Shown here piece by piece: positions 5,873 through 37,973 of a DNA stretch of 64,000 bases. The stretch's first letter is position 1; each line of letters opens with the position of its first letter. Under the pieces are notes generated by a model. The model made no database searches. It was not told the origin of the DNA and was given only the letters and a program-made list of their open reading frames with translations. The position numbers and the translations under genes were made by a program. Source of the stretch: a virus; IMG/VR virus record IMGVR_UViG_3300043570_000986, positions 23,246 through 87,245 of that record. One strand, written 5' to 3'.

Positions 5873-6133
5873 ATGAAACTAACAGATATAACAAGAGCAG
5901 AATACACTACTTATGTAGGACTTCTAACAGTGGAACAAAAAGATGAATTAGTAGGGCAGATGTATGCTCCAGATTGTTATTTTAATCCTATAATGGATAA
6001 TGCAGATAATTGGGTTATCTCTATTGAGGAGATGGAATATAACATAAATCCTGTATATGCTTGGGTAAAAGATTTAGACTTAATATTGTATATACCTAAA
6101 GAAAATCCTTTTCCACCAATTAGTGAAAATTAA
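5873..6133 (+). CDS. Small acidic protein, possible fibre chaperone
   Basis: 86-aa ORF directly after the fibre-like gene. Confidence 0.45.
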   Translation: MKLTDITRAEYTTYVGLLTVEQKDELVGQMYAPDCYFNPIMDNADNWVISIEEMEYNINPVYAWVKDLDLILYIPKENPFPPISEN

Positions 6134-19362: not shown

Positions 19363-21423
19363 ATGCCAATAAATAGATTTTCTACCGTAGGTCAAAGTGA
19401 ATATACTCCACAACATGTACCATTACCTTTTGAGGCAATAGGTGCATTAGGTGAAAGAACTCAAAAAGCACATGATGCTGCTATTGATGATACTTATAAA
19501 TTAAAAGATTTAATGACTAAAGTACCAGCAATTTATGATCCTAATTTAGGTTTATCTAATATTCAAAAGAAAAAAGAATTAGATGCTCAATTTGCACCTA
19601 AGATTGATGAACTTACTAATAAGATAATGGCAGGAGATTCTAATGCTCCTAGAGAATTAGAACAACTTAAAAGAGATTTTGCTAATAATCCTATTAGACA
19701 AGAACTTGAAAATTCATATGTAGACTATCAAGCATATAAAAAAGATATGATGGATAAAAAAGATGCATATGCTGTTTATAAAGATCCATATAGAAATAAA
19801 GCGTTAATTAATGAAGCTGGTGAACTTCAACCATTTAGATATTCTGGTATGGGTGAAAAACAAGATCATGCAACTGAAGCTAGAGCTCAAATGTCAGATA
19901 TTGCTAAATGGGGATATGATTCTAAAAATTCATATTTAGATCCTAAAGATGGTAATATTTATACTAAAGGTTCTAGTGGTAAATATATTAAAGATGAAAG
20001 AGTTAGACAATTAGCAAATACCAAAGCTGATAAATTTATTCAAACTCAAAAAGGTCAAGATTATTTACAATTATTACATTATCAAAATCCCAATGCTACA
20101 CCTCAAGAATTAATGCAAGGAGTATCTGATTATTTATATGCTGCTGGTGCTAATCAAGTATTTCAAGATGTTGGTGGAATGACTGATGTTCAAGCAACAA
20201 GTATGTCTGGAGATATTAGAAAAGAAAAACAAGAATTTGCTGGACCAATGCCTACATATCAAAATCCATTAGCAACTACTGGAACAACACTTACTCCTAA
20301 ATCAGGATTAGGTTGGTTAGGTATTAATACAAATTCTATTAATGATGATGGAACAGTTAATCATAGAACAAATATTGATTCTAAATATATTGTAACAAAA
20401 ATTGATGGTACAACTTCTACATATTATACAAGTCAAGAAGCTCATAAAGCTGCTGGAAATACAGGTATTATAACTCAACAAAAAACAGATAAAGGTGAAC
20501 AACAGCAAAACTTAACTAAATTTTACAATGATTTATTAACTACAGCTAGAGGTTTAGGTTTAGAAATACCTAAAAAATCTAATGATAAATCTAGAACAGA
20601 TTATGATGAATTACAAAAACAATTATCAAAATATGGTCAAAATATGCAACAACAAGGTAATACTTCTGCAGGATTACAATCAAGATTTGGTAATAATTTA
20701 TCTAATGAATTATTAGGAACTGTTACTGCAAAAGATGATGGTACTACAGTATTTAAAAAATCTCCATTATTAGGAGGTGCTAAAATTGTAGATCAATCTA
20801 CAGGAGAAGTTATTTCAGAAAATAAAGAAGAAGTAGCAAAAGATGGAGCTATTAGAGGTATTAATTATTTTGCTCCTGAAGCAGGTACTTATAGAATGGA
20901 TTCTAAAAACAAAGCTTACAATTATAATCCTGGAGATAATAATTTAAACGCTATGACTAAAAATACACATAGTTTAACACAAGATATTGTTAAAGCTAGA
21001 CAAGGTAAACAAAATAGTAAAACAATTATTGATAGTGATAATAATACTGTTGGAGATTATGCTAACAATATTGTAAATAGTTTAAAAGAAAACTTTAAAA
21101 CAATACCTGCAAATAACCCACAAGGATTAATATTAGCTAATCATTTAAGTGAAAATCTTGCTAAATTAAATGGATATGAACCAGTTAGTGTTAAAACTAG
21201 TGATATTTTAATACAAGAAGGTTCTCGTAGAGGATCTCCAAAATATAATTATGTAGCTTATGAACATAAAGGATTTGGTACTACTAATGAAGCTGATGAT
21301 AAAATATTAAGAGTGGATGCTGAAAGTGGACAAACAGAAATTATGACATTAGGTGATATTCATGCTAGTGAAAGAGATTATTTACAACAAAATTATGCAG
21401 GTGCATTTGAACCAACTAAATAA
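19363..21423 (+). CDS. Virion cargo/ejection protein 2
   Basis: 686 aa, starting NRF..YTPQHVPLPFE, between cargo 1 and the virion RNAP. Confidence 0.6.
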   Translation: MPINRFSTVGQSEYTPQHVPLPFEAIGALGERTQKAHDAAIDDTYKLKDLMTKVPAIYDPNLGLSNIQKKKELDAQFAPKIDELTNKIMAGDSNAPRELEQLKRDFANNPIRQELENSYVDYQAYKKDMMDKKDAYAVYKDPYRNKALINEAGELQPFRYSGMGEKQDHATEARAQMSDIAKWGYDSKNSYLDPKDGNIYTKGSSGKYIKDERVRQLANTKADKFIQTQKGQDYLQLLHYQNPNATPQELMQGVSDYLYAAGANQVFQDVGGMTDVQATSMSGDIRKEKQEFAGPMPTYQNPLATTGTTLTPKSGLGWLGINTNSINDDGTVNHRTNIDSKYIVTKIDGTTSTYYTSQEAHKAAGNTGIITQQKTDKGEQQQNLTKFYNDLLTTARGLGLEIPKKSNDKSRTDYDELQKQLSKYGQNMQQQGNTSAGLQSRFGNNLSNELLGTVTAKDDGTTVFKKSPLLGGAKIVDQSTGEVISENKEEVAKDGAIRGINYFAPEAGTYRMDSKNKAYNYNPGDNNLNAMTKNTHSLTQDIVKARQGKQNSKTIIDSDNNTVGDYANNIVNSLKENFKTIPANNPQGLILANHLSENLAKLNGYEPVSVKTSDILIQEGSRRGSPKYNYVAYEHKGFGTTNEADDKILRVDAESGQTEIMTLGDIHASERDYLQQNYAGAFEPTK

Positions 21424-21429
21424 TAAATT

Positions 21430-24400
21430 ATGCCAGAAAATCCTATAATTACACCAATTACATTTGATCCAGATAAACAAATAAAATCTTTAACAGGTGG
21501 TCAAGCTACACAATTAGGAATTGAAAGTGGAGAAGCTTTTGGTTTAAGTGCACCATCATTTGGAACATCTCAATATGATAAACCTCAAGAAACATCTTGG
21601 AGTGAAGTAAAATCAGGAGATTTTAAATATCTTCGTGGAGAAAGACAAACTAAGTTAGATAAACTAGGTAATGGTTTAATTAACATGGCAGGTAAAACTC
21701 TTACTACTGCTGCAGAAGGTATTGTTAATCCATTTTATGGAACTATTGCAGCATTAACTAATACTAATGAAAAAGGTGAGTGGGATCCAAGTGCTAATGC
21801 TTATTATAATAATGCTTTAACTCAAAGTTTAGATAATGTAGGTAAAGGATTTGAAGAATTTGCACCTACCTATGAAACTAAAAAAGAAGCCACGGCTACA
21901 GGATTAGGTAAATTATGGTCATTTAATACTATATCAAGAGATATATTAGGTGGTGCTGGTACTACTATTGGTGCTGCATTAACAGGTGCTGCATGGTCTA
22001 AAGGAATGTCTTTAGTTGGTAAAGCATTAGGTGCTGCAGGATCTTCTCAAGAAGCTGCTACAATAATTGCTGAAGCTGCTGAGTCAGGTATTGCTGCATC
22101 TGCAGATAAATTAAAATATGTTGCTAATGAATCTTTAAAGAAAACTATTAAAGATGGTGCTAGACAAGGAACTATTGCTATAACTTCTGCATCAGGTGAA
22201 GCAGGAGCAGAAGCTCGTGAAGCTGAAAAGAATGTATATTATAAATTAACTCATGATGACTTTGGTAATGAAAAAAGAATGTCTGAAGGTGAGTTAGAAT
22301 ATGCTAAGATGATGTCTAAACAAGCAGGTGATGCAGCTTTTGCAATGAACTTACCTGTAATTATGGCTGATAACTGGATTACTTTTGGTAAAGCTTTATT
22401 TGGAAATAAGACAAATGACTTTGCTAAAAAAATTATTAAAGAAGGTTCTGTATTAGATGAAGCTACTGGAGCTTATAAAGCTATTGAAAAAGGTAAATAT
22501 GCTAACTTAGGATATAGAGCAGGTAAAATAGGTGGTACTATGGCTTCTGAGGGAACTCAAGAGCAACTACAATTTGGTATTGGTAAAACTGTTGAAGATT
22601 ATTATAAAAATAAATATTACAATCCTAATGCTGCAGACTTTGCAGATTCAATGACTAAAGGTTTAGCTGAAGCTTATGGAACTCAAGAAGGATGGCATTC
22701 AGGCATCATAGGAGCATTGTCAGCAGGTATTGCAGGGCCAGGTATAGTATTAGCTAGTAAAGGAGGTAAAGCTTTTAAAGATGAATATATTACTAATCCT
22801 GAAGATGCTATTATTGCTAAAGGAGTTGAATCTTTAAATCAATATAGTGCAGAAGTTATTAGAAAAAAGTTTGTAGATAATTTTGTAAGATCTGCAAATA
22901 TTACTGAAAATAAAGATGAAGCATTAGCTAATAATGATGATTTTAATTATCATAATGCAAATGAAGATATGATATTTTCATATGTTTATAATAGAATGCA
23001 AAATGGTAAGTTAGAAGATCTTAAACAAGAATTAAATGCTTTTAAAGATTTAACTGTAGAAGAATTAAAAAATCAATATGGTATAGAAATTAATGTTAAT
23101 AATAAAAGTAAGTTTGATGAATTAACTTCAACAAATGCTGTTAAAAAGTTTGTTGAATCTAGAATGGAAAAAGTTGCAGCTATTGAAGATACTTACAATT
23201 CTGTAACTAAATTATTTCCTAATGCTAATCCTGATGTAAAAGAGTTACTTATGTATTCTGCTCAAGGTATGGAAAATACTAAAGAGAGAAGAAAATCATT
23301 AGGTGTTGAAATTAGTGAAACTGTAGGACAACCTGTATTACAAGAATTAATTACAAGAGCAGTACCTGAACAAGAAGTATTGTCTACATTTATAACAGCT
23401 ACTCCAGAAAACTTTGGTACAAGATACGCAAGTTTAAGTTTAGAAAATCAAGAAAACTTTAAAGCTTTTTTAAAAGCTACTAAAAATGTTAATGAGTTAA
23501 AAAAAGATGAAGTAATTAAAAAACTTGATGATTTAAGTTCTTTAACAAATAGAGAAAAAGATTTTGTTGCTGCTTATAATGCATTAAAAACTCCTCAATT
23601 ACAAGATCAATTTTTACAACAATCTCAAACTCTTTGGGATAAATATGCTAATATAGAAAAACAAAAGAATAAGCAAGATGTAGCTGAAGAACAAGCTGCA
23701 AATCAACCTCCTGTTCAACCTCCGGCTAATCCATTAGATCCTAATGATCCAAATAATGCTAATCCACCAGCACCAGGACAACAACCTGTTTCTGCACCTG
23801 CTGCAAAAGTTGATCCAAGTAATCCTTTAGCTCAATGGTATACTGCTAATAAAATAGATTATAGTATTTCTGAAAAAGATTTAACAGATGCATTAAATAG
23901 AGATGTTGCTAATAAAACAATTAGTGAAGAAGAAGCAGGAAATATATTTGCTGATTGGAGTGATAATCAAAATAAACAACCTGCACCTATACAAGGTATT
24001 ACTCCTGAAAGTATAGAAAGAGAAAAACAAAAAGAACTTGAATTTTGGAAAGATAATCTTGATGATGCTTGGAAAGCTGGAAGTAAAGAAACTATAAGAG
24101 AACACATAGAAAAAAAATATAATGATCTTTTAGCTTCTATTGGTAAACAACCTGCACCTGAACAAAATACTAAAGATCCTAAAAGACCTCAGTCATTTTT
24201 AATGACTCAAACTAAAGATAGAGATACTGCATTGCAATCTAATGGTGCTGTTATAGGTAACTTTAGAGGAACTAAAGAAGATGGTACACCTAAATATGGA
24301 ATACCAGTTAATGGTCAACCTGTAGTATTATCTACATTTGCTGAAGTACAAGGTAAATTAAAAGAATTAATTGATTCTAAAGAAAATTTAAATGATCATA

Positions 24401-27400
24401 TTAATTTTGAAATTACAGATTCAGGATTTGTATTAATACTTATAGATGATATGCCAGTATCTGTTATAGATAATGGTAAAAACTTTAAAGGTACTGAAGA
24501 ACAAAAGAAAGATTTTTTTGAAGTAAATTATTTATTTTATAAAAATACTGTAGCTAGAACTATTGAAGAACTAAATGCTAATAAAGCATTAATTAACTTT
24601 ACAGCTACTTCATTATTAAACTTTACAACTAATAATGAAGATACTCAAACTACATTAGAAACTTTACAACAAGAAAATCCTCAAATACCTTTTGTATTAA
24701 AAATAGGTCCTAATATGTTAGACCCTTTAAATACTGATACAGATATTTATTATAATGAAGAAACAAAAGGTCAATCTGTTAGTAGCAATGAATCTATTGC
24801 TAATATTCAAGATGGACTACATTTAGAAATAACTGAAAACTCATATCCTCAATTACCTATTAAAGTTAGAATTGCACCTCATGCTAATCTTCAAGAAGAA
24901 TTAGATAAAGTTAATGCTGCTACAACTCCAGAAGAAAAGATTGCTGCAGTTAAAGCATTTAATAATGAAGTATTTATTGCATTAAAACCTGTTAAAGGAG
25001 TTAATAGAAAAATATCATTATTCTATGATACTAAATCTGATATTTTTGCTTTACAAGTTGAAGAAAAAACATCTGGTTCTAAATGGGGTGGTGAAACTAC
25101 TAAAAAGACTGCTGAAATTGTATTACCTAATGTTTCTACTGAATCTATTTTACAAGGATTAAATGCTAGACAAGTTAATGGTAAAGATGCTAGAGCATTA
25201 GTTGAAGCAGATATTAAATACAACAATTATATTGATGAAGATAATCAAGTTATCCCATCTAGACTTTCTACACCTATTGGACAAGAAGGTTTATTTAAAT
25301 ATGATTTACAAGCACAAATTGCTGATGATGTTAAACCTGCAAGTTCAACTGTAGTTACTACTACACCTGCTCAACAAACACCTGCTCAAACTACAACAAC
25401 TACAACTCTTACAAATGAAGAACAAATTGCTAAATATAGAGCAGATGAACAAGCAGAACTTCTTAAAGCAATACCTAATATAGCTGATTATTCAGATACT
25501 TATGGTGAAAATCAAGGCAATATGCCTGATAATTTATATGCTATATACAAACCTATTTATGATAAATATAATAAATTAATTACTGATGTATCAGAAAGTA
25601 AACCTACTACAGATGCTAAAGCTGATATAGAAAGAAGAAGACAAGAGGAATTAGAAGCTTTACCATTTGATGAAGAAGCTAAACAAAGACTAGAATTTGC
25701 AAAAACAAAAGGGCAAGAAAGATATTTAAGAGAATTAAAATTACAAGCATCTAAAATAGCAGGAAGAGTAGATACCTCAACAGGTAAAAGCATACTTATT
25801 CCTAGTGGTAGTGATATAATAGAAAAACATAATGCTGAAGATGTATTAAATAATTCAAATTCTGATATTGAAAGTAGAATTATGGCTATTCAAAAATTAG
25901 CTGAAATAAGTAAACCATATAATGAAGGAAGAAAATCTGATATTTTAAAAAGCATTGTTAAAATAAAATCAGGAGAGATCTTAGGTGTTGAAGATCTTGA
26001 AATTAAAAAAATATATGATGCAGAACTAGCTGCTTTAAAAACTAAACCTGTTACAACGTCTACTGCTAATACAGAATTAGAAGCAGATTTTGCTACAATG
26101 AATAATAGTACTGCATTTGTAGGTAAAGTTAAAGAAGATTTAATTAATAAATGGAATCAAATATTAGGTACTAATTTTCCAACTAAACCTAAGTCTGCAC
26201 AATTAAGTTTATTTAAATCTGCTGTTGAATCTTATCTTAATAAAATTAATCCTGAAAGAGGTAAAGATATTGTATATTCAATTGGATTAGAAGAATCTAC
26301 TGGTATTACTCAACAAGAAATTGATGCAATTAAAGCAATACTTCCTAAGTTTATATCTATTGATGATATTAAAACTATTGCTCAAAATTTAAGAGTTAAA
26401 GGTATTCCTTATGGTGCATTTAAAAATAAAGTAATTTATTTAAATACTGCTAAAGGTAAACCAGGTACAGCATACCATGAAGCATTCCATGCTGTATTCA
26501 GAACAATGTTAACTGATGCTCAGATACAAAAGTATTTAATGGCTTCTGCTAAAGACTTTGTTAAATCTGGTAAAAACATGCAAGAAGAAGTTGCTAAACT
26601 TCGTGAAACAGTTGCTGACTATTTAACTAAATCTGATTTAGAATTACAAACTATTGTGTTAGAAGAACACATGGCGGATAAGTTTCAAGCTTTTTCTGAA
26701 AATAAAGTAGGTAGAGAAACTGAACCTTTTTTAAGACAATTGTTTATTAAAATTAAAGAATTTTTTAAACAATTATTTAGAATGGGTAATGAGTTAGACA
26801 TGTTCTATAGTAACATTCTAAAAGGTGCATTTGTTAATGCTACACCTATTTCTAATGTCTATACTAAGTCTAATGATACAGTATTTAAATTATTACCTAA
26901 TAAGTTTACAGCTACAGATAATGGATTCTTTACTGCACAAGAATCTAGAAAAATAATAAACTCTTTTGCTATTGATATTTATAAGTTTAAAACTGGTAAG
27001 TATGGTAAGATTGAAGAATTAACTAATAAAGATGGTTCTGTTAAATCAGATGAACAAATTTTAAAATATTTTGTCAATAAGCGTGTTAATGATTTAACAA
27101 CCAAAGGTTATGATTATGCTGATAGTTTCATGGATACTAATGAAGTTATGGCTAATGAAATTAGTAGTAACATTGAAAAAGAACTTTATTTGTATGATGA
27201 TAAAAATACAAATAGTTCTAACACAAATGGTTATGAAGTATTGAGTAGTTCAGTTTTAGAAAAATTAAAAATATTTAATTTTAAAAATTCTAGTGAAGAT
27301 ATAACTGAACAAGAAGGTGGTGATGAAAATCAAGAAATTAAAGAAAAGTTTAGTTCTCAAGATGCTTGGTTATCAGGAGGTCATGATTCATTATCTCAAA

Positions 27401-30400
27401 CTATTAAAAAGTATGCAGCATTTACTACTAGAACTGAAAAAGATCCTTTAACTGGTGAAAATAGAGAAGTTGCAATTGATGATGTTACTTTATATAATGG
27501 ATTAACTAGAATATTAGCAGATACTGCTGAAGAAAATATGATTGCAAAATTACATTATGCTTCAGAAAGTAATCCTAATGTTAAAGCTTTTTATGAGCAA
27601 ATGATTAAAGATTTAGGTGTTACATTTAATTCTGAAGATGGAACTATTACAACACCTAGTAATTCTAATAATTATAATATTTACAGAGCATTCTTAAGTA
27701 ACTTTAAAAAATCTAGAATATCTCAATTAGATGTATTATTAGGTAAAACAGGTTTAACTTGGGGTAATGCTAATCAAAATGATCCAGCTAAAGTTTCTTT
27801 AACTCAATGGGAAAATAATTTATTAGTTGCTTCTGTTAAAAATAAAGCAACTGTTATTGCTGCTTCTGCTAAAATTTATGAAGAAGCTAATGATTTTATT
27901 AAACCTAAAAAAGATAATGCTGTTGCATTAGAAAAGAAAGTTGAAACATTAAAAAAAGAATTTGCTAAGTTAGGTATTAATATTACTACTGCTTATATTA
28001 GATTTTCTATTTTAAAACAAAAATCTTTATTAAAAACAGTACAAGAAAATCCTAGTGCTTATTTAACTAAAGATCAAATAACTTTTTTAAATAGTTATGA
28101 TATAGAAATACCTATTAACTTTGGTACTTTTGCACCAAAATCTGCAAACTTAAAAACATTTAGTATTGAAACTTTATTACAAAATGATCCTATTAGTATT
28201 TATAAAAAAGATGCAGGGTTAAGTGAGTTAAAAAGTATAGCTGAAAACAATGCTTTATTTGATGAATCTATTGGTAACTTTTCATTTACTAATGCTGAAG
28301 GAGAAAGAGTTTATGAAATTATTAATAAGTCTTATGTATTAGAAGCTATTTCTAAATTTAAAGATGGTACTTATTTAAAAAGTTTAATTAATGGTACTGC
28401 TATAGGTTTAAATGAAACTGAAACTAAAAATAATTATTTTTTAAAGAATAACTTGTTAGTTAACAAGTATCAAGATTACTTAAAAGATTTAAAATTAAAT
28501 ATTCTTAGTGGTATTAGAGATACTAATCCAGGTCCTAATAATGAAAATAGAGCAGGTATTACTTTTGGTAAATTTGATGGTAGAAGTTATTTAGTAAGTG
28601 CTTTAGCATTATTTAATAACAATGGTAATAAAGAATCTGGTAAGTATATATTCAGACAAAATGAAGCTTCTAGTACTGCTTATGTTGCAGAGTTACCTAA
28701 GTTAGCTTTAGTTGGTGAAAATACAATGGATGACAAAACCATTAATGATTTCTTTGGTAGACAGTTTTTAAATGAATTTGAAAGAATTGGTAGAGAAAAG
28801 AAATTATTTGATGCTGGTAAAGGTACTAAATATGAAAAATATAATACTGCATTAACAGATAGAGCTTTTGATTTTACTGAATTCCAATATTTAAAAGATA
28901 TAATGGGTGAAGCTAAATATCAAGAATTAGTTGATACAGCTTTAGCAGGTACACAATTAACTGATGTTCAAATGGCAGAAGTTTTAGGTGCTGTTAATAC
29001 TTATTTAAATAGTGGTTTTGCTGATTTCTTAAAATTAGTAGATGACTATGGACTTAAATTTGTTGATGGTATTTCTAAAGAAATGTTATCTAATGCAAAT
29101 TTAAAAAACTTCTACATTAATGATTATATGATGTCTACATCAATAAATGAATTATTAGATGGAGATTATGCATTAGGTAGAAAAGATAAAACAGATATTT
29201 CTAAAAGAAATAAATCTGCAATGGCTTCTGGTGTTGATTATGGTAAAGGTAGTCATAACTCTGCTATCATTAAAGATATTCCAGTTTATGTAAGACAAAA
29301 TCCTCAAACTAAAGTTTTAGAAAGAGTTGATGCTTCACAAGTTACTAAAAAAGGAAAAAAATATTTTGATAATGAAAATAATGAAGTTAATGAAATAACT
29401 AGTAATGATGCTCAATCTTATGCTGCTCAACATCATATTATGATGGGTTCATTAAGAATGGGTAGACTAGATGAAAAAACTAAAGAGATTTATAAAAACA
29501 TTATTCAGTTTACCAAAAGAGATGAGAAAGGTAAAGTTGTAAGAAATGTTAATATTGGTAATAAAAATCAATCTCATTTATCTGATGCTTTAGCTTCATT
29601 AAACTCTAAAAAAACAGTAGCTTTTGATGGTGTTAATTCATTAATCTTAAAGATGTCTGAATTTGGTTTAGTTAGAAGTTCAATATCTTATATTGAAGAT
29701 AAAGATGTAGATAATTTTACAAACTTAACAAATCAGTTAACTGATTTAATGTTTAATAAAGATGACTTTGAAAGTGAAGAATTTAGAAGTCTTACTGCTC
29801 AAATAGCTAAGTTATATAAACCAGTACCAGGAATGGAATACTGGCATAATTTAGCTAACAATATGGATAAGAATGCTGTAGATCATGTTGCTACACAATC
29901 TGCTTCTAAAGGAGCTACAACACTTGCTGAAGATAGTTTATCTGGTGATTTAAACTTATCTAAATCAAGATTTAAAGTTGCTAATAATACTAAAAGATTA
30001 CAAGTAGAAACTCCTACTGGTAAAAAAGAAATTGTATTTGGTTCTCAAATATTAACTATTATTACTAGTGAGTTAGATGACAATTCAGATGTTAATTTTT
30101 TAATTGGTGGTAAAGAAATTAAAAATTTAGGTGAATTAAGAGCTGCTTATAATGATGCAATTAATGATTCTAGAAATTCTGAATTTACTAAAGCAATTGC
30201 TGTTATTAAAGATTTAAAAGGTAAGGCTTTAAGTCCAGATAGTAATTATGATGGAATGATTGATACTACGGAGTTAGATGAGATTGTTAAAAGATCTTTA
30301 GCTGCAAGTGGTGCTGATGTTCAACAAATGCAATATTTTGAAGGTGGTTATAACTATAACATGATTCAAATGTTAGTTAAAGCTGAACAAGTTATTTTAG

Positions 30401-33400
30401 CACATTTTAGTAAAGGTGTTTTAAATCAAAAAGTTAATGGTGATAAAGTATCATTGTTATCTGGTTCAGGTATTACTGTTGTTAGAAATATTGCTACAGG
30501 TAATGTTATATCTCATCATGAAGTTGTTAAAAACCCTTCTAAATATACTGACAAAACTAAATATTCTACAAATACTACTTTAAAATATAATGAAGAAGAT
30601 AAAGATGGTAGAAGATATTCTGAATGTATTTTATCTCAAGCTATTTTAACTAGACATGGTTTAAAAGTAGGAGATGAAATTACTGAAAAACATCCAGAGT
30701 TATTAAAAATGTTTGGATACCGTATTCCTACAGGTGATAAACAATCTGCTATGTCATTAAAAGTAGTTAGTTTATTACCAGATTATTACAATGGTGTAGG
30801 TATATTTCCTGATGAAATTGTGTATTTATCTGGAGCTGACTTTGATATTGACTCTGAGTTTATTCAAATGCCTGCATTTTGGATTAATTCAGAAGGTGTA
30901 CCAGTTAAATTTGGTACTGAAAAAACTAATGCTGAAAAGTTTGAAGCTTATAAATATTATAACAAAAAATATGATAAGAATTTTAAAGCAGTATACAACA
31001 ACATATTATCTAAAGATGCTAGACTTACTTCGTTAATAGGTAATGAAGATTTAGATAAAGATCAAGTTTCAGCTATTAAAACAATTGTATTTGATGAAGC
31101 TTATAAAGAAGCATCTATTAAATTAGGTTTACCTTTTAATGAAAAAGACTTTATTAAATCTAAATTACAACCTACAGCTAATTACAATAATATAGCAGTA
31201 GATTCAATGATTTCTATTTTAACTAATGATTCATTAAATGGTATTACTAATAATACTACATCAACAGATGCTTTAAAAGATGTTGCTGAAAATTTAATTA
31301 ATGGTGGATTTATTAAACAAACTAAAGGTAATATTCAAGAAAAAAATAAATCTGCTCATGATATTAATGGTAAGTTTGATGCTAATAAAAAGAACTCTGA
31401 TGGTAAAAATGGTATTGGTATAGCCGCTAATAAAATTCAACAGTTTGCTTTTTTAATGTCTAAAATAGGAAATAAAAGTGTCATATTTAATGAAGAATCT
31501 TTTAAATTTGAAATTGCTGGACAAGTTGGTGGTATATATCAAGAAAAAAATAAAGAAGGTCAACGTATTGCAGATAACTTAAACTTACTTTTAAATGCTT
31601 TTACAGATAATGCTAAAGATCCTATTGCTGGTAGATTAAACTTAAAGTTTGAATTACTTGGTGGTGCTATGGAATTAATTATGCAAGGTATGACATTTGA
31701 AAATACTATGAAGTTAATTAATTTACCTATTATTCAAGAATATGGTGAGTTAGCTAAAACTTTAAAATATGCACTTAAGACTGGTGTAGAATCTAGTTTT
31801 ACTAAAGAGTCTATTAAAATTGCAGCAATTGCTAAAATACTTTATCCAGAAGAAGCTAAAAAGAAATTAAGTAGTGCTATTGAATTAGTAAAAAATGCTA
31901 AACAAAATAAAGATCCAGAATTACAAACTATATCTAAAAATAATATTGAAAATATCTTATTAGGTAAAGGTTTTGAAAGTTCAGATGCTAATGATTTTGA
32001 AAATAATAATGATGTACAAATACAAGCATTATTTCAATTTTTAAAAGTTGTTGATCAAAATAATGTAATGTCTAACATTAATACATTCCTTAAATTAAAT
32101 CAAGGATTAGATGTATCATTTACAAACTTACATGATGATTTACATCAAGCAATTGATACTTTTAAAATTAATGATTTAGTAGAAACACCTAGTGAAGAAT
32201 TACAAGTAACTGATGAACCACATATTGATATTACTAGTTTATTAGAAGGAGATAAAAATACTTTAAATAATATTAAGCGTGCTTTAATTGTAGAAAAACA
32301 AGTAGGTCAAAAGATATTTATTGAACAAACTAAAGTATTTAAAAATGAGTTTCAAAAGTTTTTAAGTAGTTTAAGTCCTTCTTTTACTAAGACTGGAGAT
32401 AATTTAGCTAAAATAAGTAGAGAGTTTTTAGGATTCTTAGCTGTTAAATCTTATATTGCAGATTTAGAAAAATTAAAAAAAGACTTAAATACTTCTGAGG
32501 ATAACAAAGAAAAAGTAGAAGCAGTTGACAAAAGATTAAAATCAATTGATTTAGGTTTAGTATTTAATGAATTAAATGCTGAAGGTAAAAAAACTTTAGC
32601 TCAACAATTAATTGTCTTAAAAGCTGATCAAGCAACTAAAAATAATTATATTGTTAACTATTTTTCAGCTAAAATAAATGATGTTAATTTACAACCAGAA
32701 GATCAATCTATATATGAAGCTGATGTTATAGATACTAAATCTTTTGTTAAAGAAAGTAATGAAACTATATCTTTATTAATAGATTCAGTTAAATCTTTAT
32801 ATAGTGATAATACAACTAAATTAGATGAAACAGGATTAACACCAAGAGATTTTGTTAATAACATGTTAGGTTATTTAATGGTTAAAGATAACATGACATT
32901 TAAAAATAATAGTGTTGCAAAATACTTACCTGTTGAAATGTTTGGTAATTATTCTAAATCATTAGATAATATTATTGAAGCATTAGTTACTAAGTCTGAT
33001 AAATTATCTGTTAAGTTAGATGATTTAGGATATAACTTTAGAAAACTATATGCTACAGATTTAAATACTCCTTACAATGCTCTTAAGTTTGCAGGTATTC
33101 AAGATAATGGTAGTTCAATTACAATTACTGAAAATAATCAAGAAATTACATTTAAAACTAAGAGTAATACTGCATTAGAAATTGCTAAGATAAAATTTCA
33201 AATTAGTCAAACTTCTAATGAACAAGTATTAGCAGAATTACAAAAACAACAAAGTATATTAGAAAATAAGTTATCTAAAGAAAAACCTATTATTGAAAAT
33301 AAAGAAGTTTTAGATAAAATGTTTAAATCTGAAAAGACTGAAGAAAAAGGTAGTTATAAAGATAAAGATGGTAAAACAGTTACGTATGATAAATCTTCTT

Positions 33401-34077
33401 ATATCTTTCCTCAGTTTATGCAAATTAGAGTTGGAGAAAAAGGTGAAGCTAAAGCTCAAGTTTATGAATTAGTTAGTTACACTAGTGAATTAAATAAAAA
33501 TAAAACTATAGGTATGCAAAAGCATACACTAAATGAAGGTTTTGCTATAGGTGAATCTGCTGTATATAAATTAGTTGAAAAGACAGGTAATAAAGGTGTT
33601 AGTATATTTTCTACTGGAACTTACGATAATGCAGTTAGTATATTTAGTAAAATTACTAAAAAGACTCCTGCTCAAAGAGATGCTGAAAATGTTGTTAATA
33701 CTGAAGAAGAAGTAGCTGCTCAATTAACTGCAGCTAAAACTACATTAAGTCCTAAAGAACAACTTCGTGCAGATATTCTTAAAAGAAATCCTAAGTTAGA
33801 AACTGAAGCTAATACTCAAGTTATTAATGTAATTCCTGATGAAAATTTGGAAACTACTAAAAAAAGCATTAACTTAGATGCAAAAACACAGATGCTTAAA
33901 GGTATTGTAAAAGATTTAATTAGTTCTAATAAAGATAAAATTGATTTATTACTTACACCTGAAGAAAGAGATATAATGAATACAAGATATAAAAATGTTA
34001 GTTCTGTTGAAGAAATTAAAGCATTAAGAGATGATGTATTTCAAATGATTGAAGGTAAAAACCCATTTAAATGTTAA
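21430..34077 (+). CDS. Giant virion-packaged DNA-dependent RNA polymerase polyprotein with a zincin-like domain
   Basis: 4215 aa. YRIPT..GADFDIDS (DxDxD at about 30838-30852) and TDNAKDP fit the crAss-like two-barrel RNAP; AYHEAFH (26473-26490) plus EEHMAD is a zincin motif; the Gly/Ala-rich hydrophobic N-terminal region is ejection-protein-like. Confidence 0.85.
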   Translation: MPENPIITPITFDPDKQIKSLTGGQATQLGIESGEAFGLSAPSFGTSQYDKPQETSWSEVKSGDFKYLRGERQTKLDKLGNGLINMAGKTLTTAAEGIVNPFYGTIAALTNTNEKGEWDPSANAYYNNALTQSLDNVGKGFEEFAPTYETKKEATATGLGKLWSFNTISRDILGGAGTTIGAALTGAAWSKGMSLVGKALGAAGSSQEAATIIAEAAESGIAASADKLKYVANESLKKTIKDGARQGTIAITSASGEAGAEAREAEKNVYYKLTHDDFGNEKRMSEGELEYAKMMSKQAGDAAFAMNLPVIMADNWITFGKALFGNKTNDFAKKIIKEGSVLDEATGAYKAIEKGKYANLGYRAGKIGGTMASEGTQEQLQFGIGKTVEDYYKNKYYNPNAADFADSMTKGLAEAYGTQEGWHSGIIGALSAGIAGPGIVLASKGGKAFKDEYITNPEDAIIAKGVESLNQYSAEVIRKKFVDNFVRSANITENKDEALANNDDFNYHNANEDMIFSYVYNRMQNGKLEDLKQELNAFKDLTVEELKNQYGIEINVNNKSKFDELTSTNAVKKFVESRMEKVAAIEDTYNSVTKLFPNANPDVKELLMYSAQGMENTKERRKSLGVEISETVGQPVLQELITRAVPEQEVLSTFITATPENFGTRYASLSLENQENFKAFLKATKNVNELKKDEVIKKLDDLSSLTNREKDFVAAYNALKTPQLQDQFLQQSQTLWDKYANIEKQKNKQDVAEEQAANQPPVQPPANPLDPNDPNNANPPAPGQQPVSAPAAKVDPSNPLAQWYTANKIDYSISEKDLTDALNRDVANKTISEEEAGNIFADWSDNQNKQPAPIQGITPESIEREKQKELEFWKDNLDDAWKAGSKETIREHIEKKYNDLLASIGKQPAPEQNTKDPKRPQSFLMTQTKDRDTALQSNGAVIGNFRGTKEDGTPKYGIPVNGQPVVLSTFAEVQGKLKELIDSKENLNDHINFEITDSGFVLILIDDMPVSVIDNGKNFKGTEEQKKDFFEVNYLFYKNTVARTIEELNANKALINFTATSLLNFTTNNEDTQTTLETLQQENPQIPFVLKIGPNMLDPLNTDTDIYYNEETKGQSVSSNESIANIQDGLHLEITENSYPQLPIKVRIAPHANLQEELDKVNAATTPEEKIAAVKAFNNEVFIALKPVKGVNRKISLFYDTKSDIFALQVEEKTSGSKWGGETTKKTAEIVLPNVSTESILQGLNARQVNGKDARALVEADIKYNNYIDEDNQVIPSRLSTPIGQEGLFKYDLQAQIADDVKPASSTVVTTTPAQQTPAQTTTTTTLTNEEQIAKYRADEQAELLKAIPNIADYSDTYGENQGNMPDNLYAIYKPIYDKYNKLITDVSESKPTTDAKADIERRRQEELEALPFDEEAKQRLEFAKTKGQERYLRELKLQASKIAGRVDTSTGKSILIPSGSDIIEKHNAEDVLNNSNSDIESRIMAIQKLAEISKPYNEGRKSDILKSIVKIKSGEILGVEDLEIKKIYDAELAALKTKPVTTSTANTELEADFATMNNSTAFVGKVKEDLINKWNQILGTNFPTKPKSAQLSLFKSAVESYLNKINPERGKDIVYSIGLEESTGITQQEIDAIKAILPKFISIDDIKTIAQNLRVKGIPYGAFKNKVIYLNTAKGKPGTAYHEAFHAVFRTMLTDAQIQKYLMASAKDFVKSGKNMQEEVAKLRETVADYLTKSDLELQTIVLEEHMADKFQAFSENKVGRETEPFLRQLFIKIKEFFKQLFRMGNELDMFYSNILKGAFVNATPISNVYTKSNDTVFKLLPNKFTATDNGFFTAQESRKIINSFAIDIYKFKTGKYGKIEELTNKDGSVKSDEQILKYFVNKRVNDLTTKGYDYADSFMDTNEVMANEISSNIEKELYLYDDKNTNSSNTNGYEVLSSSVLEKLKIFNFKNSSEDITEQEGGDENQEIKEKFSSQDAWLSGGHDSLSQTIKKYAAFTTRTEKDPLTGENREVAIDDVTLYNGLTRILADTAEENMIAKLHYASESNPNVKAFYEQMIKDLGVTFNSEDGTITTPSNSNNYNIYRAFLSNFKKSRISQLDVLLGKTGLTWGNANQNDPAKVSLTQWENNLLVASVKNKATVIAASAKIYEEANDFIKPKKDNAVALEKKVETLKKEFAKLGINITTAYIRFSILKQKSLLKTVQENPSAYLTKDQITFLNSYDIEIPINFGTFAPKSANLKTFSIETLLQNDPISIYKKDAGLSELKSIAENNALFDESIGNFSFTNAEGERVYEIINKSYVLEAISKFKDGTYLKSLINGTAIGLNETETKNNYFLKNNLLVNKYQDYLKDLKLNILSGIRDTNPGPNNENRAGITFGKFDGRSYLVSALALFNNNGNKESGKYIFRQNEASSTAYVAELPKLALVGENTMDDKTINDFFGRQFLNEFERIGREKKLFDAGKGTKYEKYNTALTDRAFDFTEFQYLKDIMGEAKYQELVDTALAGTQLTDVQMAEVLGAVNTYLNSGFADFLKLVDDYGLKFVDGISKEMLSNANLKNFYINDYMMSTSINELLDGDYALGRKDKTDISKRNKSAMASGVDYGKGSHNSAIIKDIPVYVRQNPQTKVLERVDASQVTKKGKKYFDNENNEVNEITSNDAQSYAAQHHIMMGSLRMGRLDEKTKEIYKNIIQFTKRDEKGKVVRNVNIGNKNQSHLSDALASLNSKKTVAFDGVNSLILKMSEFGLVRSSISYIEDKDVDNFTNLTNQLTDLMFNKDDFESEEFRSLTAQIAKLYKPVPGMEYWHNLANNMDKNAVDHVATQSASKGATTLAEDSLSGDLNLSKSRFKVANNTKRLQVETPTGKKEIVFGSQILTIITSELDDNSDVNFLIGGKEIKNLGELRAAYNDAINDSRNSEFTKAIAVIKDLKGKALSPDSNYDGMIDTTELDEIVKRSLAASGADVQQMQYFEGGYNYNMIQMLVKAEQVILAHFSKGVLNQKVNGDKVSLLSGSGITVVRNIATGNVISHHEVVKNPSKYTDKTKYSTNTTLKYNEEDKDGRRYSECILSQAILTRHGLKVGDEITEKHPELLKMFGYRIPTGDKQSAMSLKVVSLLPDYYNGVGIFPDEIVYLSGADFDIDSEFIQMPAFWINSEGVPVKFGTEKTNAEKFEAYKYYNKKYDKNFKAVYNNILSKDARLTSLIGNEDLDKDQVSAIKTIVFDEAYKEASIKLGLPFNEKDFIKSKLQPTANYNNIAVDSMISILTNDSLNGITNNTTSTDALKDVAENLINGGFIKQTKGNIQEKNKSAHDINGKFDANKKNSDGKNGIGIAANKIQQFAFLMSKIGNKSVIFNEESFKFEIAGQVGGIYQEKNKEGQRIADNLNLLLNAFTDNAKDPIAGRLNLKFELLGGAMELIMQGMTFENTMKLINLPIIQEYGELAKTLKYALKTGVESSFTKESIKIAAIAKILYPEEAKKKLSSAIELVKNAKQNKDPELQTISKNNIENILLGKGFESSDANDFENNNDVQIQALFQFLKVVDQNNVMSNINTFLKLNQGLDVSFTNLHDDLHQAIDTFKINDLVETPSEELQVTDEPHIDITSLLEGDKNTLNNIKRALIVEKQVGQKIFIEQTKVFKNEFQKFLSSLSPSFTKTGDNLAKISREFLGFLAVKSYIADLEKLKKDLNTSEDNKEKVEAVDKRLKSIDLGLVFNELNAEGKKTLAQQLIVLKADQATKNNYIVNYFSAKINDVNLQPEDQSIYEADVIDTKSFVKESNETISLLIDSVKSLYSDNTTKLDETGLTPRDFVNNMLGYLMVKDNMTFKNNSVAKYLPVEMFGNYSKSLDNIIEALVTKSDKLSVKLDDLGYNFRKLYATDLNTPYNALKFAGIQDNGSSITITENNQEITFKTKSNTALEIAKIKFQISQTSNEQVLAELQKQQSILENKLSKEKPIIENKEVLDKMFKSEKTEEKGSYKDKDGKTVTYDKSSYIFPQFMQIRVGEKGEAKAQVYELVSYTSELNKNKTIGMQKHTLNEGFAIGESAVYKLVEKTGNKGVSIFSTGTYDNAVSIFSKITKKTPAQRDAENVVNTEEEVAAQLTAAKTTLSPKEQLRADILKRNPKLETEANTQVINVIPDENLETTKKSINLDAKTQMLKGIVKDLISSNKDKIDLLLTPEERDIMNTRYKNVSSVEEIKALRDDVFQMIEGKNPFKC

Positions 34078-34080
34078 ACT

Positions 34081-34524
34081 ATGGCTTGTAATGTATTAAA
34101 TAACGCAATAAAAGACATGTATTATAAAGGTATTATGTCTGAAGCTAGGATGGTAAATCCTAATAAAATAACTGAATTCGATATTGCTAATGAAGAACTT
34201 AAAAAAGTTGCTCAAGATTTATATGGAGTTAAAGATAAAGGATTACCTTTTACTATTATAGATGAAGGTTTAAAAAAAGAAATAACTGGTTCTACTTATC
34301 GTAGAGATAATACTTCTAATGTATTAAGAGCTGAACCTAATAATGAATTTTTTAATGAACTTCAGACAAATTTTGATTTAATTGAAACTGAAAATGATAA
34401 GTTAGATTATGAAGAAGAAAATAAAATGTCTGAAGATATGTATGAAAGATCAGATTATGATGGAATACAAGATTTTGAAAAATTATTAGAGTCAGGAGAA
34501 ATAACACAATTTTGTAGTAGATAA
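34081..34524 (+). CDS. Small acidic cargo-cluster protein
   Basis: 147 aa, begins MAC and ends FCSR; lies between two giant cargo genes. Confidence 0.6.
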   Translation: MACNVLNNAIKDMYYKGIMSEARMVNPNKITEFDIANEELKKVAQDLYGVKDKGLPFTIIDEGLKKEITGSTYRRDNTSNVLRAEPNNEFFNELQTNFDLIETENDKLDYEEENKMSEDMYERSDYDGIQDFEKLLESGEITQFCSR

Positions 34525-34538
34525 TTAAAAATAATAAT

Positions 34539-37500
34539 ATGGCATGTTTATACTCCCACAATGGGAAAACTTATACTAAAGAAGAATTAATTGATTATTT
34601 AAAAAATAATCCTAATATTTATAATATTAAACCAGATTTTAGTAATATTAATGAAATTATTGAACAAATAGCTAATGAACCTGAGGTCACTGAAAAAAAA
34701 GTGTTAGGCAATCAAACTATTAAGCGTTTAAACAACTTGATTCAAAATCAAATTAAAATTTTACAAAGTAGAATACTTGAGTTTGAATCAGCTAAAGAAA
34801 GAAAAGGTTATTTACCTAAAGAAGATACTATTAATAGGTTAAAAGATTTAAAAGAAAAGTTATCTACTTTAGAAAATGTAGATGCGTTTACAAATACTGC
34901 TGATTTTATTCATCAAGAATTAGGTATTGTTGAAAATTTTTTAGATAATACGTTTGATGTAAATAATGAAAATCATATTAATTTTGTTTTACAAATTAGA
35001 AAACAATTAGAATCTTATAAAGAGTTTGCTACATTTTTACCTGAAATGTCTGATTTAAATTCAGAAATTAAAAAGATTGCTAGTGAAATAGATTCTATGT
35101 ATAAAAATACTCAAGAAAGAGTTGAAGAAATTCTTGAAGAATACATGATTAATTTTGTTAAAACTAATACTAAAAGAAATATTAGTAAAGAAGATATTAA
35201 GCAAATGTTAGATGAGTCTAAAGATATATCTTGGCAAGAAATGAAGATGGGTGGTTTATCTAATAGTATGGATCCACTATTACAATTATTGCAAAGACAT
35301 GTTGAAAAGACTAGAGAAGAAGTTTATGAAAACACTAATAACTGGATTGCTAAAGTTAAAAATCAAATATCAAAACTTAAGAAAGCAGGAATAGATGGAT
35401 TTGATTGGATGTTTCAAAAAACAAAAGATGGTAAATTAACAGGTAGAATACTACAAAGAGTTAATGAATTATATTATAAAGATAGAACTGCTATTTTTAG
35501 TATTTTAAGAGATGCTAAAGGAGATAAGAGAGAGTATATTTATAAACCAGGAGAAACTTTATCTGAAGCTGAAAAACAACATAATTTAAAATTTTCAGAA
35601 GATAAAAAGAAAGTTGGTTCATTTTTAAGTGCTGAAACAGTTGATAATACTGGTGCTAGAGATGGTGAAAATCATAAATATTCTGATGAGTTTAAACAAG
35701 AAAGAAATAACTTTGAAAAATTAGTTAGTTATGAATCAGGATATACTGAATGGGTTAAAAAACCATTTGTACCAGGAACTAAAAAACTTAATGGTGAAGA
35801 ATTGACTCAAAAAGAATATGATAGATTATATACTACATATAAAAGAAAATATTACACTGAACTTAAAGAAGGTTTTAGATTAAAAAGTACTTATGATAAT
35901 GCAACTAAAAGTTGGGTTAGTGATGGTACTGTTGAAAGAACTGAAACTTCTAGAGTTAAACCTGAATATGTTGAAGTTGTTACTGAAATAAATGGTGCAA
36001 CAACTAAATATGCAGATAAACAATATCATTCTCTAATGAATGATAATAGTCCTGCAGGTATTGCAAGAAAAGAGTTTTTTGAATTTTATAGAAATACTTC
36101 TAATGAATTATTAGATAAATTACCTTTAGCTACTAAGCAAAAAATGCAAGGTAAAATGTTTAGAGTTAGAAGTTCTATTGCTAAAGATATTAAATCTATA
36201 GGTATATTTAATACTGTTAAAAAATCTATTAGACAATATGTTAATCCTGATGTAATTTTTACTTCTAGAGAATTAGATGAAGAAGGAAATATGTTAGAAG
36301 ATGTGCCTATTTTTTATACAGGAGAATTAAAAAGTAATAGAAAAATTGAGCAATTAACTAAGAAATTAGAAGAATTAAGAAAAGAACTTCAAACTAATGC
36401 TAAAGATAAATCCTTAGCAAATAAAATTAAGATGACTAAAAATCTTTTATTAATTGAAGAATCTAAACTTACTCCTGATGAATTAGAATTAGATATGGGT
36501 AAATCATTAATTAAAGCTGCTCAAATGGCTGAGAATTATGATTTAATGAAACAAGCTGAAGCTACATTACTTATTGCTAAAAAAGTAATTGAACAAAAAA
36601 ACTTTTTTAAACTTAATGCTGCAGGGCAAAAAGAAATAATTAAAGGTATTGATTCTAATGTAAATAAAAGAATGAAAAGTTACATGACAATGATATTTTA
36701 TTCTAATTCTACAGCTAATCAAGATCAAATATCTAAACTCATACAGAATTTTAATAGTTTTGTAGCTTATAAATCCTTAGGTTTAAATCCATTTTCAGCT
36801 ATTAATAATACTGTAATGGCTAAAATTAATAATAGAATAGAAGGATTTGGTAAACAATTTGGATTTACTAATAAACATTTAAATTCTGCAATTGCAGATA
36901 CTGCAGAGTATATTAGAAGTTTAAGTTATATGAAAAATTTAGGTAAAGATGAATACTTGTTAGATCCTTCTAATAAGTTTGAAGCAATGCTTAAAAAGTT
37001 TAACTGGTTAGATAGAAATCAAATTATTGAAGATAGTTCTGCTATTAGTAAAGTGATGTTTATGGGTATTACAGGTGGTGAATTTATTGCACAATCTAAT
37101 ACTGCTATTGCTAAACTTAGATCTCAAATACTTACTAATTCTAAAACTGGTGAAAAATTATCAGTTTGGGAAGCACATGAATTTATCAATGGAGAATTAA
37201 AACTTAAAGATGGTTTTGAATATTCTGCACAAGAAAAAAGAAGTATATCTGTAGATATTAAAAACATGAATAAAATGATTCATGGTAACTACAGTGGAAA
37301 TGATAAAGTTGCTATGCAAGAACATGCTTTAGGTCAATCTGCAATGCAATTTAAAAAGTGGGTATATAACTTTGCTAAATCTAGATATGGTAATACTTAT
37401 TATGATGAAACTTCTGGAGATTACCAAGAAGGTAGATATAGAACTTTTAAAGATTTTATAATGATTTTAAAAGCTGGTGCAGCATTTGATTTTAAAACTA

Positions 37501-37973
37501 TTAAAAATACTTTTGAATCTTTAGAAGATTATCAAAAATCTAATCTTAAAAAATTACAAGTAGAAGCTATTTATTGGGCGACAAGTGTAGTATTAATGTT
37601 ATTATTAGAAGGATTATCTAAAGGTATTGATGATGATGATGAAGAACTTAAAATGTTTGTAAACTTTTTAAGAAAACAGTCAGATAGAGTTGGTGGTGAA
37701 TTAGATGCTGCAATTAATCCTAAGTCTATTGCTGCTAATATTAAAAATCCTGTATCAGGAATAAGAGCAGCAAATGATTTTGGTGATATTTTAGTAGAGT
37801 TTATAAAACTTCCATTTAATTATGCTGGTGATTCTAAAGATTTGTATGTTCAAAAAGGATCTCACAAAGGTCAGTTAAGATTAAATAAAGAAATACAAGA
37901 TATTATTCCTATTGCAAATTTAGAAAATCAATTTGACAACTTATTAACATCAGGAAATTTCTATTTTAAATAA
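34539..37973 (+). CDS. Large helical virion cargo/ejection protein
   Basis: 1144 aa, coiled-coil rich; IHGNY, QFKKW and EGRYRT motifs plus a hydrophobic segment near the C-terminus; last gene of the + arm. Confidence 0.65.
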   Translation: MACLYSHNGKTYTKEELIDYLKNNPNIYNIKPDFSNINEIIEQIANEPEVTEKKVLGNQTIKRLNNLIQNQIKILQSRILEFESAKERKGYLPKEDTINRLKDLKEKLSTLENVDAFTNTADFIHQELGIVENFLDNTFDVNNENHINFVLQIRKQLESYKEFATFLPEMSDLNSEIKKIASEIDSMYKNTQERVEEILEEYMINFVKTNTKRNISKEDIKQMLDESKDISWQEMKMGGLSNSMDPLLQLLQRHVEKTREEVYENTNNWIAKVKNQISKLKKAGIDGFDWMFQKTKDGKLTGRILQRVNELYYKDRTAIFSILRDAKGDKREYIYKPGETLSEAEKQHNLKFSEDKKKVGSFLSAETVDNTGARDGENHKYSDEFKQERNNFEKLVSYESGYTEWVKKPFVPGTKKLNGEELTQKEYDRLYTTYKRKYYTELKEGFRLKSTYDNATKSWVSDGTVERTETSRVKPEYVEVVTEINGATTKYADKQYHSLMNDNSPAGIARKEFFEFYRNTSNELLDKLPLATKQKMQGKMFRVRSSIAKDIKSIGIFNTVKKSIRQYVNPDVIFTSRELDEEGNMLEDVPIFYTGELKSNRKIEQLTKKLEELRKELQTNAKDKSLANKIKMTKNLLLIEESKLTPDELELDMGKSLIKAAQMAENYDLMKQAEATLLIAKKVIEQKNFFKLNAAGQKEIIKGIDSNVNKRMKSYMTMIFYSNSTANQDQISKLIQNFNSFVAYKSLGLNPFSAINNTVMAKINNRIEGFGKQFGFTNKHLNSAIADTAEYIRSLSYMKNLGKDEYLLDPSNKFEAMLKKFNWLDRNQIIEDSSAISKVMFMGITGGEFIAQSNTAIAKLRSQILTNSKTGEKLSVWEAHEFINGELKLKDGFEYSAQEKRSISVDIKNMNKMIHGNYSGNDKVAMQEHALGQSAMQFKKWVYNFAKSRYGNTYYDETSGDYQEGRYRTFKDFIMILKAGAAFDFKTIKNTFESLEDYQKSNLKKLQVEAIYWATSVVLMLLLEGLSKGIDDDDEELKMFVNFLRKQSDRVGGELDAAINPKSIAANIKNPVSGIRAANDFGDILVEFIKLPFNYAGDSKDLYVQKGSHKGQLRLNKEIQDIIPIANLENQFDNLLTSGNFYFK

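Follow-up and report, generated by a model that had tools for sequence, protein, structure and literature searches.

Facing terminal cysteines at the gene breaks of the virion RNA polymerase module of crAss-like phages

How crAss-like phages store an RNA polymerase (RNAP) of ~0.6-0.7 MDa and deliver it through a narrow tail is an open question. A stretch of viral DNA of 64,000 nucleotides, positions 23,246 to 87,245 of the IMG/VR virus record IMGVR_UViG_3300043570_000986 (hereafter, the window), raises that question in a particular form. Its polymerase module consists of three consecutive genes that specify a giant virion RNAP, a small linker subunit, and a large polymerase-associated subunit. 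The three proteins are almost devoid of cysteine (Cys), and the few Cys residues that they possess lie, with one exception, at the ends that face one another across the gene boundaries. Do these residues tie the separate gene products into one chain? The comparison of crAss-like genomes presented here strongly supports the interpretation that facing terminal Cys residues pair consecutive polymerase-module proteins head to tail.

All genes and codons of the module lie on the + strand of the window. The polymerase is 4215 amino acids (aa) long (21430..34077) and ends in EGKNPFKC. Its last residue, Cys4215 (codon TGT, 34072..34074), is followed by the stop codon TAA (34075-34077) and, after a gap of 3 bases, by the gene for the 147-aa linker subunit (34081..34524). 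The linker begins MACNVL and ends EITQFCSR; Cys3 (34087..34089) and Cys145 (34513..34515) are its only Cys residues, and both occupy invariant alignment columns. The 1144-aa polymerase-associated subunit (34539..37973) begins MACLYS and has a single Cys, Cys3 (34545-34547). At junction 1, therefore, Cys4215 of the polymerase is the upstream half and Cys3 of the linker the downstream half; at junction 2, Cys145 of the linker is the upstream half and Cys3 of the 1144-aa protein the downstream half. The C-terminus of the 1144-aa protein has no Cys and terminates the chain. An earlier reading of the DNA from its letters alone (the sequence-only reading) had drawn attention to the head-to-tail pattern at 34060-34560, and had stated that the 147-aa protein has its two terminal Cys only and that the 1144-aa protein appears to have its N-terminal Cys only. 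Open reading frame (ORF) tabulation reproduces the pattern letter for letter, and Cys counts agree with both statements. The second Cys of the polymerase, Cys3066, was absent from that reading.

The pattern is far beyond chance. Specifically, the cargo block to which the module belongs includes two further proteins, of 997 aa (16332..19325, +) and 686 aa (19363..21423, +), each with 0 Cys by ORF tabulation. Together, the five proteins contain 5 Cys in 7,189 residues (0.07%), as against 179 Cys in 12,399 aa (1.44%) for the other 51 tabulated ORFs of the window, and 4 of the 5 are located at the two junctions. With uniform placement of the 5 Cys of the three module proteins, 4 or more would land in the 30 junction-end residues (out of 5,506) with a probability of 4e-9. 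In control ORFs (n = 226; 150-1299 aa; window plus 14 named phage loci), a Cys occurs in the first 6 residues in 3.1% and in the last 9 residues in 9.7%. The sequence-only reading had imagined a chain across consecutive cargo proteins. That notion holds for the polymerase module and not for the rest of the block: because the 997-aa and 686-aa proteins have no Cys, the chain is confined to the polymerase module.

What are the proteins that bear these residues? Residues 69-1804 of the 4215-aa protein match crAss001 gp47 (blastp E 9e-25) and phi14:2 g067, and residues 2558-3443 match phi14:2 g066 (blastp E 3e-14) and crAss001 gp50. By tblastn against phage records, the C-terminal third matches the catalytic RNAP of phi14:2 and of others. 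The sequence GADFDIDSEF, at residues 3135-3144, is invariant in an alignment of 18 relatives and includes the catalytic motif DFDID (residues 3137-3141; 30838..30852, +); a DFDxD motif is named as the catalytic site in a preprint (10.1101/2020.03.07.982082). Because of the matches of its two parts and the invariant catalytic motif, the 4215-aa protein is, as judged from sequence, a fusion of a gp47/g067-type part (~69-1804) and a catalytic gp50/g066-type virion RNAP (~2558-3443). The locus has two marks of a crAss-like virion RNAP module: a giant protein with the DFDxD motif of two-barrel RNAPs, and homologues of the gp47/g067 and gp49/g065 types that flank the catalytic part. A phmmer search of the C-terminal 1692 aa of the polymerase against PDB sequences yielded no match. 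Cys3066 (codon 30625..30627, +; motif YSEC) lies 71 residues ahead of the catalytic motif and is invariant in the 18 aligned relatives, and the internal Cys is kept in 19/19 polymerase homologues, 1024-1159 residues from the C-terminus. We take Cys3066 to belong to the enzyme core, and it is not counted in the chain.

The two downstream proteins appear to derive from a single subunit type. The 1144-aa protein is homologous by blastp to crAss001 gp49 and phi14:2 g065, and tblastn against phage records matches it at ~21-26% identity to proteins annotated "putative RNA-polymerase subunit" in crAss001 and numerous other Crassvirales. For the 147-aa protein, tblastn against phage records gave no match. 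Aligned with hhalign against residues 1-300 of phi14:2 g065, residues 1-100 of its family alignment match residues 1-96 (probability 87%, E 3.9e-6). The same alignment finds no match (probability 0.4%) in a 7-sequence alignment of gp49-type N-termini, a profile that is 10-21% identical and probably poor. With moderate confidence, then, the 147-aa protein is probably the split-off N-terminus of a gp49/g065-type subunit. Pfam and PHROGs assign no family to the 997-, 686-, 147-, 1144-, or 4215-aa protein at the usual thresholds; the 1144-aa protein has two sub-threshold Pfam matches.

Within the lineage of the window, the arrangement of a Cys near the C-terminus of the upstream protein facing a Cys near the N-terminus of the downstream protein (hereafter, the Cys rule) is preserved with few departures. 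Two Cys residues, one at position 3 or 4 and one 2 residues short of the C-terminus, constitute the full complement in all relatives of the 147-aa protein (24/24). Polymerase relatives (n = 19; 38-99% identical over the last 566 residues) have a Cys 0-2 residues from the C-terminus in 19/19 cases, and exactly two Cys in 18/19, at lengths of 3,289-4,296 residues. In the family of the 1144-aa protein, 34/36 members possess one Cys and no more, at position 2-4, and Cys3 is invariant in both family alignments. Two exceptions remain. One is a version of the window's own protein in which the call begins at an internal start; the other, designated P0060, is a truncated call that the Cys rule brought to light. 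In L032, the 88% relative of P0060 is an ORF of 2198 aa beginning with MAC, and the protein ahead of it ends in KECY. Among seven IMG/VR contigs with relatives, the junction 2 pair is kept in 7/7 and the junction 1 pair in 6/7, the remaining contig (L007) having a frame break at junction 1. The rule holds even where the small protein has diverged to 38% identity in the portion that aligns: in that relative, the polymerase ends in TPACDGGMSI, the small protein runs from MGC to QFCKIR, and the large subunit starts MACLY. Finally, in a further lineage, found via P0059, the rule is kept in 16/16 loci that contain the junction; 4 more of the 20 loci end before it.

Several peculiarities were encountered among these relatives. 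Three homologues of the 1144-aa protein (P0054-P0056) start MC, with the Cys at position 2, and removal of the Met would expose an N-terminal cysteine. In L004, a 227-aa ORF with 5 Cys (5305-5988), possibly a mobile insertion, lies between the small protein and the large subunit, and the junction Cys pair is preserved on either side of it. In L030 (9680-13176), the large subunit is 849 aa long and matches the window protein over residues 1-523 only, followed by a 314-aa ORF that ends in VSCG. Rfam gave no intron match in this large-subunit region, and the rest of the large-subunit match is not on the contig; as a counter-example to the Cys rule, this variant is doubtful. P0057 is a second 849-aa form of the large subunit.

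Does the rule extend beyond this lineage? The polymerase region was taken from 16 named phage records, and the ends of every module protein were examined. The resulting comparison comprises 15 genomes, among them the window, crAss001, phi14:2, p-crAssphage, and a Leptolyngbya phage; IMG/VR contigs were counted separately. Across the 15 genomes, at 20/20 junctions the upstream protein has a Cys among its final 9 residues and the downstream protein one among its initial 6, so that the terminal Cys residues are conserved as pairs, one of the two outcomes by which the sequence-only reading had proposed to judge its idea. The outer ends of the chains are bare: a Cys occurs at 0/15 N-termini of first proteins and at 0/15 C-termini of last proteins. 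Specifically, in phi14:2 the last residue of g067 is its sole Cys, g066 (2180 residues) has Cys3 and Cys2179 and no others, and Cys3 is the one Cys of g065. In crAss001, the one Cys of gp47 is at -2 and that of gp49 is Cys5, and gp50 has Cys5, Cys1334, and Cys2404 (-8). The only Cys of a 1552-aa protein of Leptolyngbya phage Lbo-JY46 is its last residue, and the only Cys of the next protein, of 2748 aa, is at position 4. In crAss001, cr128_1, cr116_1, and IAS virus, the gp47-like gene and its partner are encoded on opposite strands; therefore, gene adjacency and translation cannot explain the Cys pairs.

Two phages were left out of the comparison: cr116_1, which has an apparently interrupted gene, and IAS virus, in which ambiguous bases are read as X and gp055 and gp056 overlap. 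The other junctions of cr116_1 and the protein ends of IAS virus still obey the Cys rule. In cr116_1 (L014), matches to the group I intron family RF00028 at 20956-21066 and 21701-21798 (E 3.5e-6 and 6.7e-7; neither reaches the gathering score) lie on either side of a Cys-rich 215-aa homing-endonuclease-like ORF, gp050, between gp051 and gp049. The polymerase gene of cr116_1 may be interrupted by an intron that carries a homing endonuclease. For crAss002 gp33, we used the start MSC (MSCTPSNPKL), as in gp41 of the close relative cr107_1. The annotated start of crAss002 gp33 (L013, 16146-16241) lies 32 codons upstream; the Cys rule suggests that the shorter form is real and the annotated start wrong.

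The two homologous modules that are best known bring out how the genes can be divided. In Cellulophaga phage phi14:2, g067-g066-g065 form a module that obeys the identical Cys rule; g066 encodes the virion RNAP gp66 (PDB 6VR4), and the proteins of the module are in the virion, the record being annotated "experimental MS/MS" (tandem mass spectrometry). The gp47-like and catalytic parts are separate in phi14:2 and g065 is single, whereas in the window the former are fused and the latter is split into 147 and 1144 aa. The preprint on phi14:2 gp66 describes fused forms as "likely cleaved," and the words "cysteine," "disulfide," and "Cys" do not occur in it. In Bacteroides phage crAss001, gp47, gp50, and gp49 form a homologous module that obeys the rule, with gp47 on the opposite strand, unlike in the window. 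According to the available text of the crAss001 structure paper (Nature 2023, PMC10172136), the polymerase cargo is detected in virions by mass spectrometry, gp46, gp47, gp49, and gp50 are argued to partly unfold for passage through the tail, and the maps do not resolve the polymerase proteins.

The strongest argument that facing Cys residues act together, apart from a bond seen in phage A4 (below), comes from comparing gene breaks with gene fusions. The joint between gp47-type and gp50-type proteins is a break in Steigviridae and Intestiviridae and is fused in the window, cr118_1, and cr1_1. The joint between gp50-type and gp49-type proteins is a break in Steigviridae, Suoliviridae, and the lineage of the window, whereas Intestiviridae and Lbo-JY46 have it fused. 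An additional break divides the gp49-type protein in the lineage of the window (147 and 1144 aa) and in cr116_1 (gp049 and gp048, 833 and 1281 aa). Every break carries a Cys pair, and the lineage-specific breaks between the 147-aa and 1144-aa proteins and between cr116_1 gp049 and gp048 have pairs of their own. Fused joints, in contrast, lack a conserved Cys. Specifically, no Cys lies within ~1,100 residues (window) or ~1,800 residues (cr1_1 gp076) of the projected gp47-gp50 joint. Intestiviridae fusions such as p-crAssphage gp44 ("RNAP catalytic subunit fused to unknown RNAP subunit") have the same domain order as the window, with a peptide bond in place of the window's two Cys-flanked breaks and a joint without conserved Cys. 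The gp45-type protein that precedes gp44 has a C-terminal Cys, which the N-terminal Cys3 of gp44 faces, and among six such gp50-gp49 fusions the N-terminal Cys column alone is conserved (6/6), any other column having Cys in at most 3/6. A single Cys is present in the 2,748 aa of the Lbo-JY46 fusion. Because breaks carry pairs and fused joints do not carry conserved Cys, the facing residues appear to act together and to take the place of the peptide bond that joins the fused forms.

What kind of link could this be? The nearest experimentally examined case is cyanopodophage A4 (Anabaena phage A-4L), for which cryo-electron microscopy places a disulfide between Cys1715 of gp27 and Cys5 of gp26 (PNAS 2025, PMC12002296). 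In the record of A-4L, gp27 (1717 aa) has Cys1715, 2 residues from the C-terminus, as its only Cys, and gp26 (1114 aa; A4 gp26 is chain A of PDB 9K3A) has its only Cys at position 5 (MSKHC). The likeness to the window consists of adjacent genes, giant ejection proteins, and lone Cys residues near the upstream C-terminus and at about position 3-5 downstream. There are also differences. A4 has a single such pair and no virion RNAP, unlike the crAss module. The available text of the A4 paper describes gp27 and gp26 in the pre-ejectosome as a pentameric ring of heterodimers around the portal axis. The disulfide figures there as a feature of that one phage's structure and is not generalized into a rule about broken and fused genes. 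In crAss001 virions, moreover, disulfides hold the tail ring and hub proteins. The available part of that paper (PMC10172136) lists inter-subunit disulfides for the gp57 dimer and the tail hub and ring proteins and none for gp47, gp49, or gp50. Because of the analogous bond in A4 and the other disulfides of crAss001 virions, a disulfide is the likeliest chemistry, and by this analogy the terminal-Cys link is probably an inter-chain disulfide.

The sequence-only reading had offered disulfide, metal bridge, and ligation alike as ways for the terminal Cys residues to link neighboring proteins. The link itself gains support from facing pairs that are conserved at breaks and not at outer ends; ligation and a metal bridge remain unsupported. 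Split inteins have halves of tens of residues and nucleophilic Cys at the first intein residue and at the +1 position of the C-extein. In these proteins, the upstream Cys is followed by no more than 0-8 residues and the downstream Cys is preceded by no more than 1-5, which leaves no room for intein blocks, and both a split intein and ligation were rejected.

If the link is a disulfide, the following sequence of events can be envisaged. In the particle, Cys4215 of the polymerase would be joined to Cys3 of the linker at junction 1, and Cys145 of the linker to Cys3 of the 1144-aa subunit at junction 2. The bonds would form after enclosure in the capsid or once the particle meets oxic lake water. 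The product would be one thread of ~5,500 residues, topologically equal to the fused polypeptide of other crAss-like phages, and clearance of cysteine from the remaining sequence would prevent wrong cross-links. Such a linear thread would still be able to unfold and pass through the tail, and the host cytoplasm would then reduce the links. We infer a role in co-packaging and ordered ejection with release by reduction, along with the timing of bond formation. A more general proposal is possible, and we offer it tentatively. Peptide bond and disulfide could be interchangeable joints, such that the module always enters as one thread of ~5,000-6,500 residues, a reduction-cleavable polyprotein stitched at the gene breaks and separated into working subunits in the cytoplasm. 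The 147-aa protein would in that case be a free-standing, double-ended link.

Several considerations weigh against a disulfide-linked chain. For no crAss-like phage is there a biochemical or structural observation of a bond between these proteins. Because synthesis and packaging take place in a reducing cytoplasm, the bond must form late, and many crAss phages of the anoxic gut retain the pattern. The geometry is loose, the upstream Cys lying 0 to 8 residues from the C-terminus and the downstream Cys at position 2 to 6 among relatives. The 20/20 junctions are not 20 independent events, given that the genomes share ancestry. Comparison of A-4L gp26-gp29 with 26 crAss-module proteins (blastp, phmmer) found nothing below E 0.1, and A4 is, as far as seen, an analogy and not a homologue. 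Among the fusions, cr118_1 gp14 has a single Cys2041 that lies ~70-370 residues from the projected fused joint, a projection too coarse to place it. Finally, some cargo proteins have a lone terminal Cys without a head-to-tail partner. With regard to the literature, we found no paper on terminal Cys pairing in Crassvirales; the extended data of PMC10172136 (disulfide list, reduced and non-reduced mass spectrometry) may bear on it. A paper on phage N4 (PMC13434306) contains no occurrence of disulfide, cysteine, or Cys.

The rival that survives best is that the facing ends dock without a covalent bond, through a shared metal ion or a conserved docking peptide. Only one Cys is available per side, and the gut crAss phages live anoxically. 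In addition, the available text on A4 describes a C-terminal helix of gp27 that inserts into a cleft of gp26, with the disulfide as further stabilization. The 147-aa protein could be read similarly. Its last ~25 residues, the tail ...DFEKLLESGEITQFCSR that ends at Cys145, are its best conserved stretch, and such conservation of the residues before the Cys (...DFEKLLESGEITQFC) is expected of a docking peptide. An AlphaFold2 model of the protein (20-row alignment; mean predicted local distance difference test score, pLDDT, 71.5) has a moderately confident N-terminal domain and a low-confidence tail (residues 114-147), with a short helix (128-137) within the conserved stretch. The model is thus compatible with a flexible docking tail. 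A Foldseek search of the model against PDB gave no match at E <= 0.001. Prediction of a complex of polymerase residues 3900-4215, residues 1-420 of the 1144-aa protein, and the 147-aa protein, each chain supplied with its own alignment, scored 0.00 against a mark of 0.32, the fold of the partners being uncertain, and this score counts neither for nor against binding. Docking without a bond nonetheless fits other observations poorly. Two thiolates alone are ill suited to holding a metal ion, and no conserved His or Cys accompanies them. A plain docking residue need not be a Cys in every lineage while its neighbors vary. Clearance of Cys over thousands of residues is what would be expected if stray disulfides were harmful, and disulfides do occur in crAss001 virions. 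We regard bond-free docking as rather unlikely.

A second alternative is that the terminal Cys residues are not mutual partners. They could attach each protein to a component of the capsid, portal, or membrane, or become acylated after entry, and their head-to-tail look would be a by-product. Lone terminal Cys residues are what this alternative can call upon. The 857-aa gp47 of p-crAssphage has a single Cys, at -1, and the next protein has no facing N-terminal Cys. Smaller Intestiviridae cargo proteins end in a conserved RCGG (or CGGG) plus a basic tail (L011 gp48/gp47, L020 gp20, L024 gp62, L013 gp30, L016 gp38). Protein b of Lbo-JY46 and gp90 of cr8_1 begin MKKKC and MTKKC, respectively. Because such partnerless residues exist, terminal Cys may serve more than one purpose. 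As an account of the module, however, separate attachment leaves unexplained the contrast between Cys-free outer ends and Cys at every junction, the absence of conserved Cys at fused joints, and the appearance of a new pair at each new break. For these reasons, we consider it a poor prospect, with perhaps a slim chance of being correct.

A third alternative moves the pattern from the protein to the nucleic acid, with the Cys codons acting as signals for read-through or for a ribosome hop between TGT codons, or reflecting a constraint on start context. Junction 1 invites the thought: it reads TGT TAA ACT ATG GCT TGT, in frame, with the second Cys codon 12 nt downstream. Junction 2, however, is out of frame. 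In relatives, the upstream Cys codon varies from 0 to 8 codons before the stop, and an ATG is retained 1 to 5 codons ahead of the downstream Cys. Different residues (A, P, G, S, I, N, K) occur between Met and the constant Cys. The opposite-strand gp47-like genes described above speak against any such signal. Programmed bypass and read-through were likewise rejected, since the matched codons are there only superficially at junction 1, the stop spacing varies, and some partners are on opposite strands. A signal in the nucleic acid or in translation is very improbable.

Finally, chance, or a by-product of an overall loss of Cys from proteins that traverse the envelope in an unfolded state, is scarcely credible: ejected proteins of other phages are Cys-poor too (A-4L gp29 has 0 Cys and gp28 has 2), but depletion predicts zero Cys, not one per inner end, and it must contend with the uniform-placement value for the window and with control frequencies that are far from 20/20.

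The preferred reading, a Cys-linked polymerase chain, concerns one part of a longer run of large late genes, which also includes a 1579-aa virion structural protein (11462-16201, +) that matches PHROG 28748. Small proteins of the structural block at window positions 1415-1990, 2605-3462, 9594-10274, and 10759-11460 are Cys-rich (7-12 Cys, 3-6%), unlike the cargo block. Lake-water and freshwater metagenomes hold this DNA at least in part (20 rows from 16 studies, of which 8 rows are possibly the source sample).

For annotators, the Cys rule is of practical help in finding true starts and ends, introns, and mis-called genes among giant ORFs, as with crAss002 gp33 and P0060. For the phages, a conserved end-to-end tether, if true, would explain how separate gene products are packaged in equal number, how their order is kept, and how they are fed through the channel as a single chain. 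It would also explain how the genes of the polymerase module have been free to fuse and to split in evolution.

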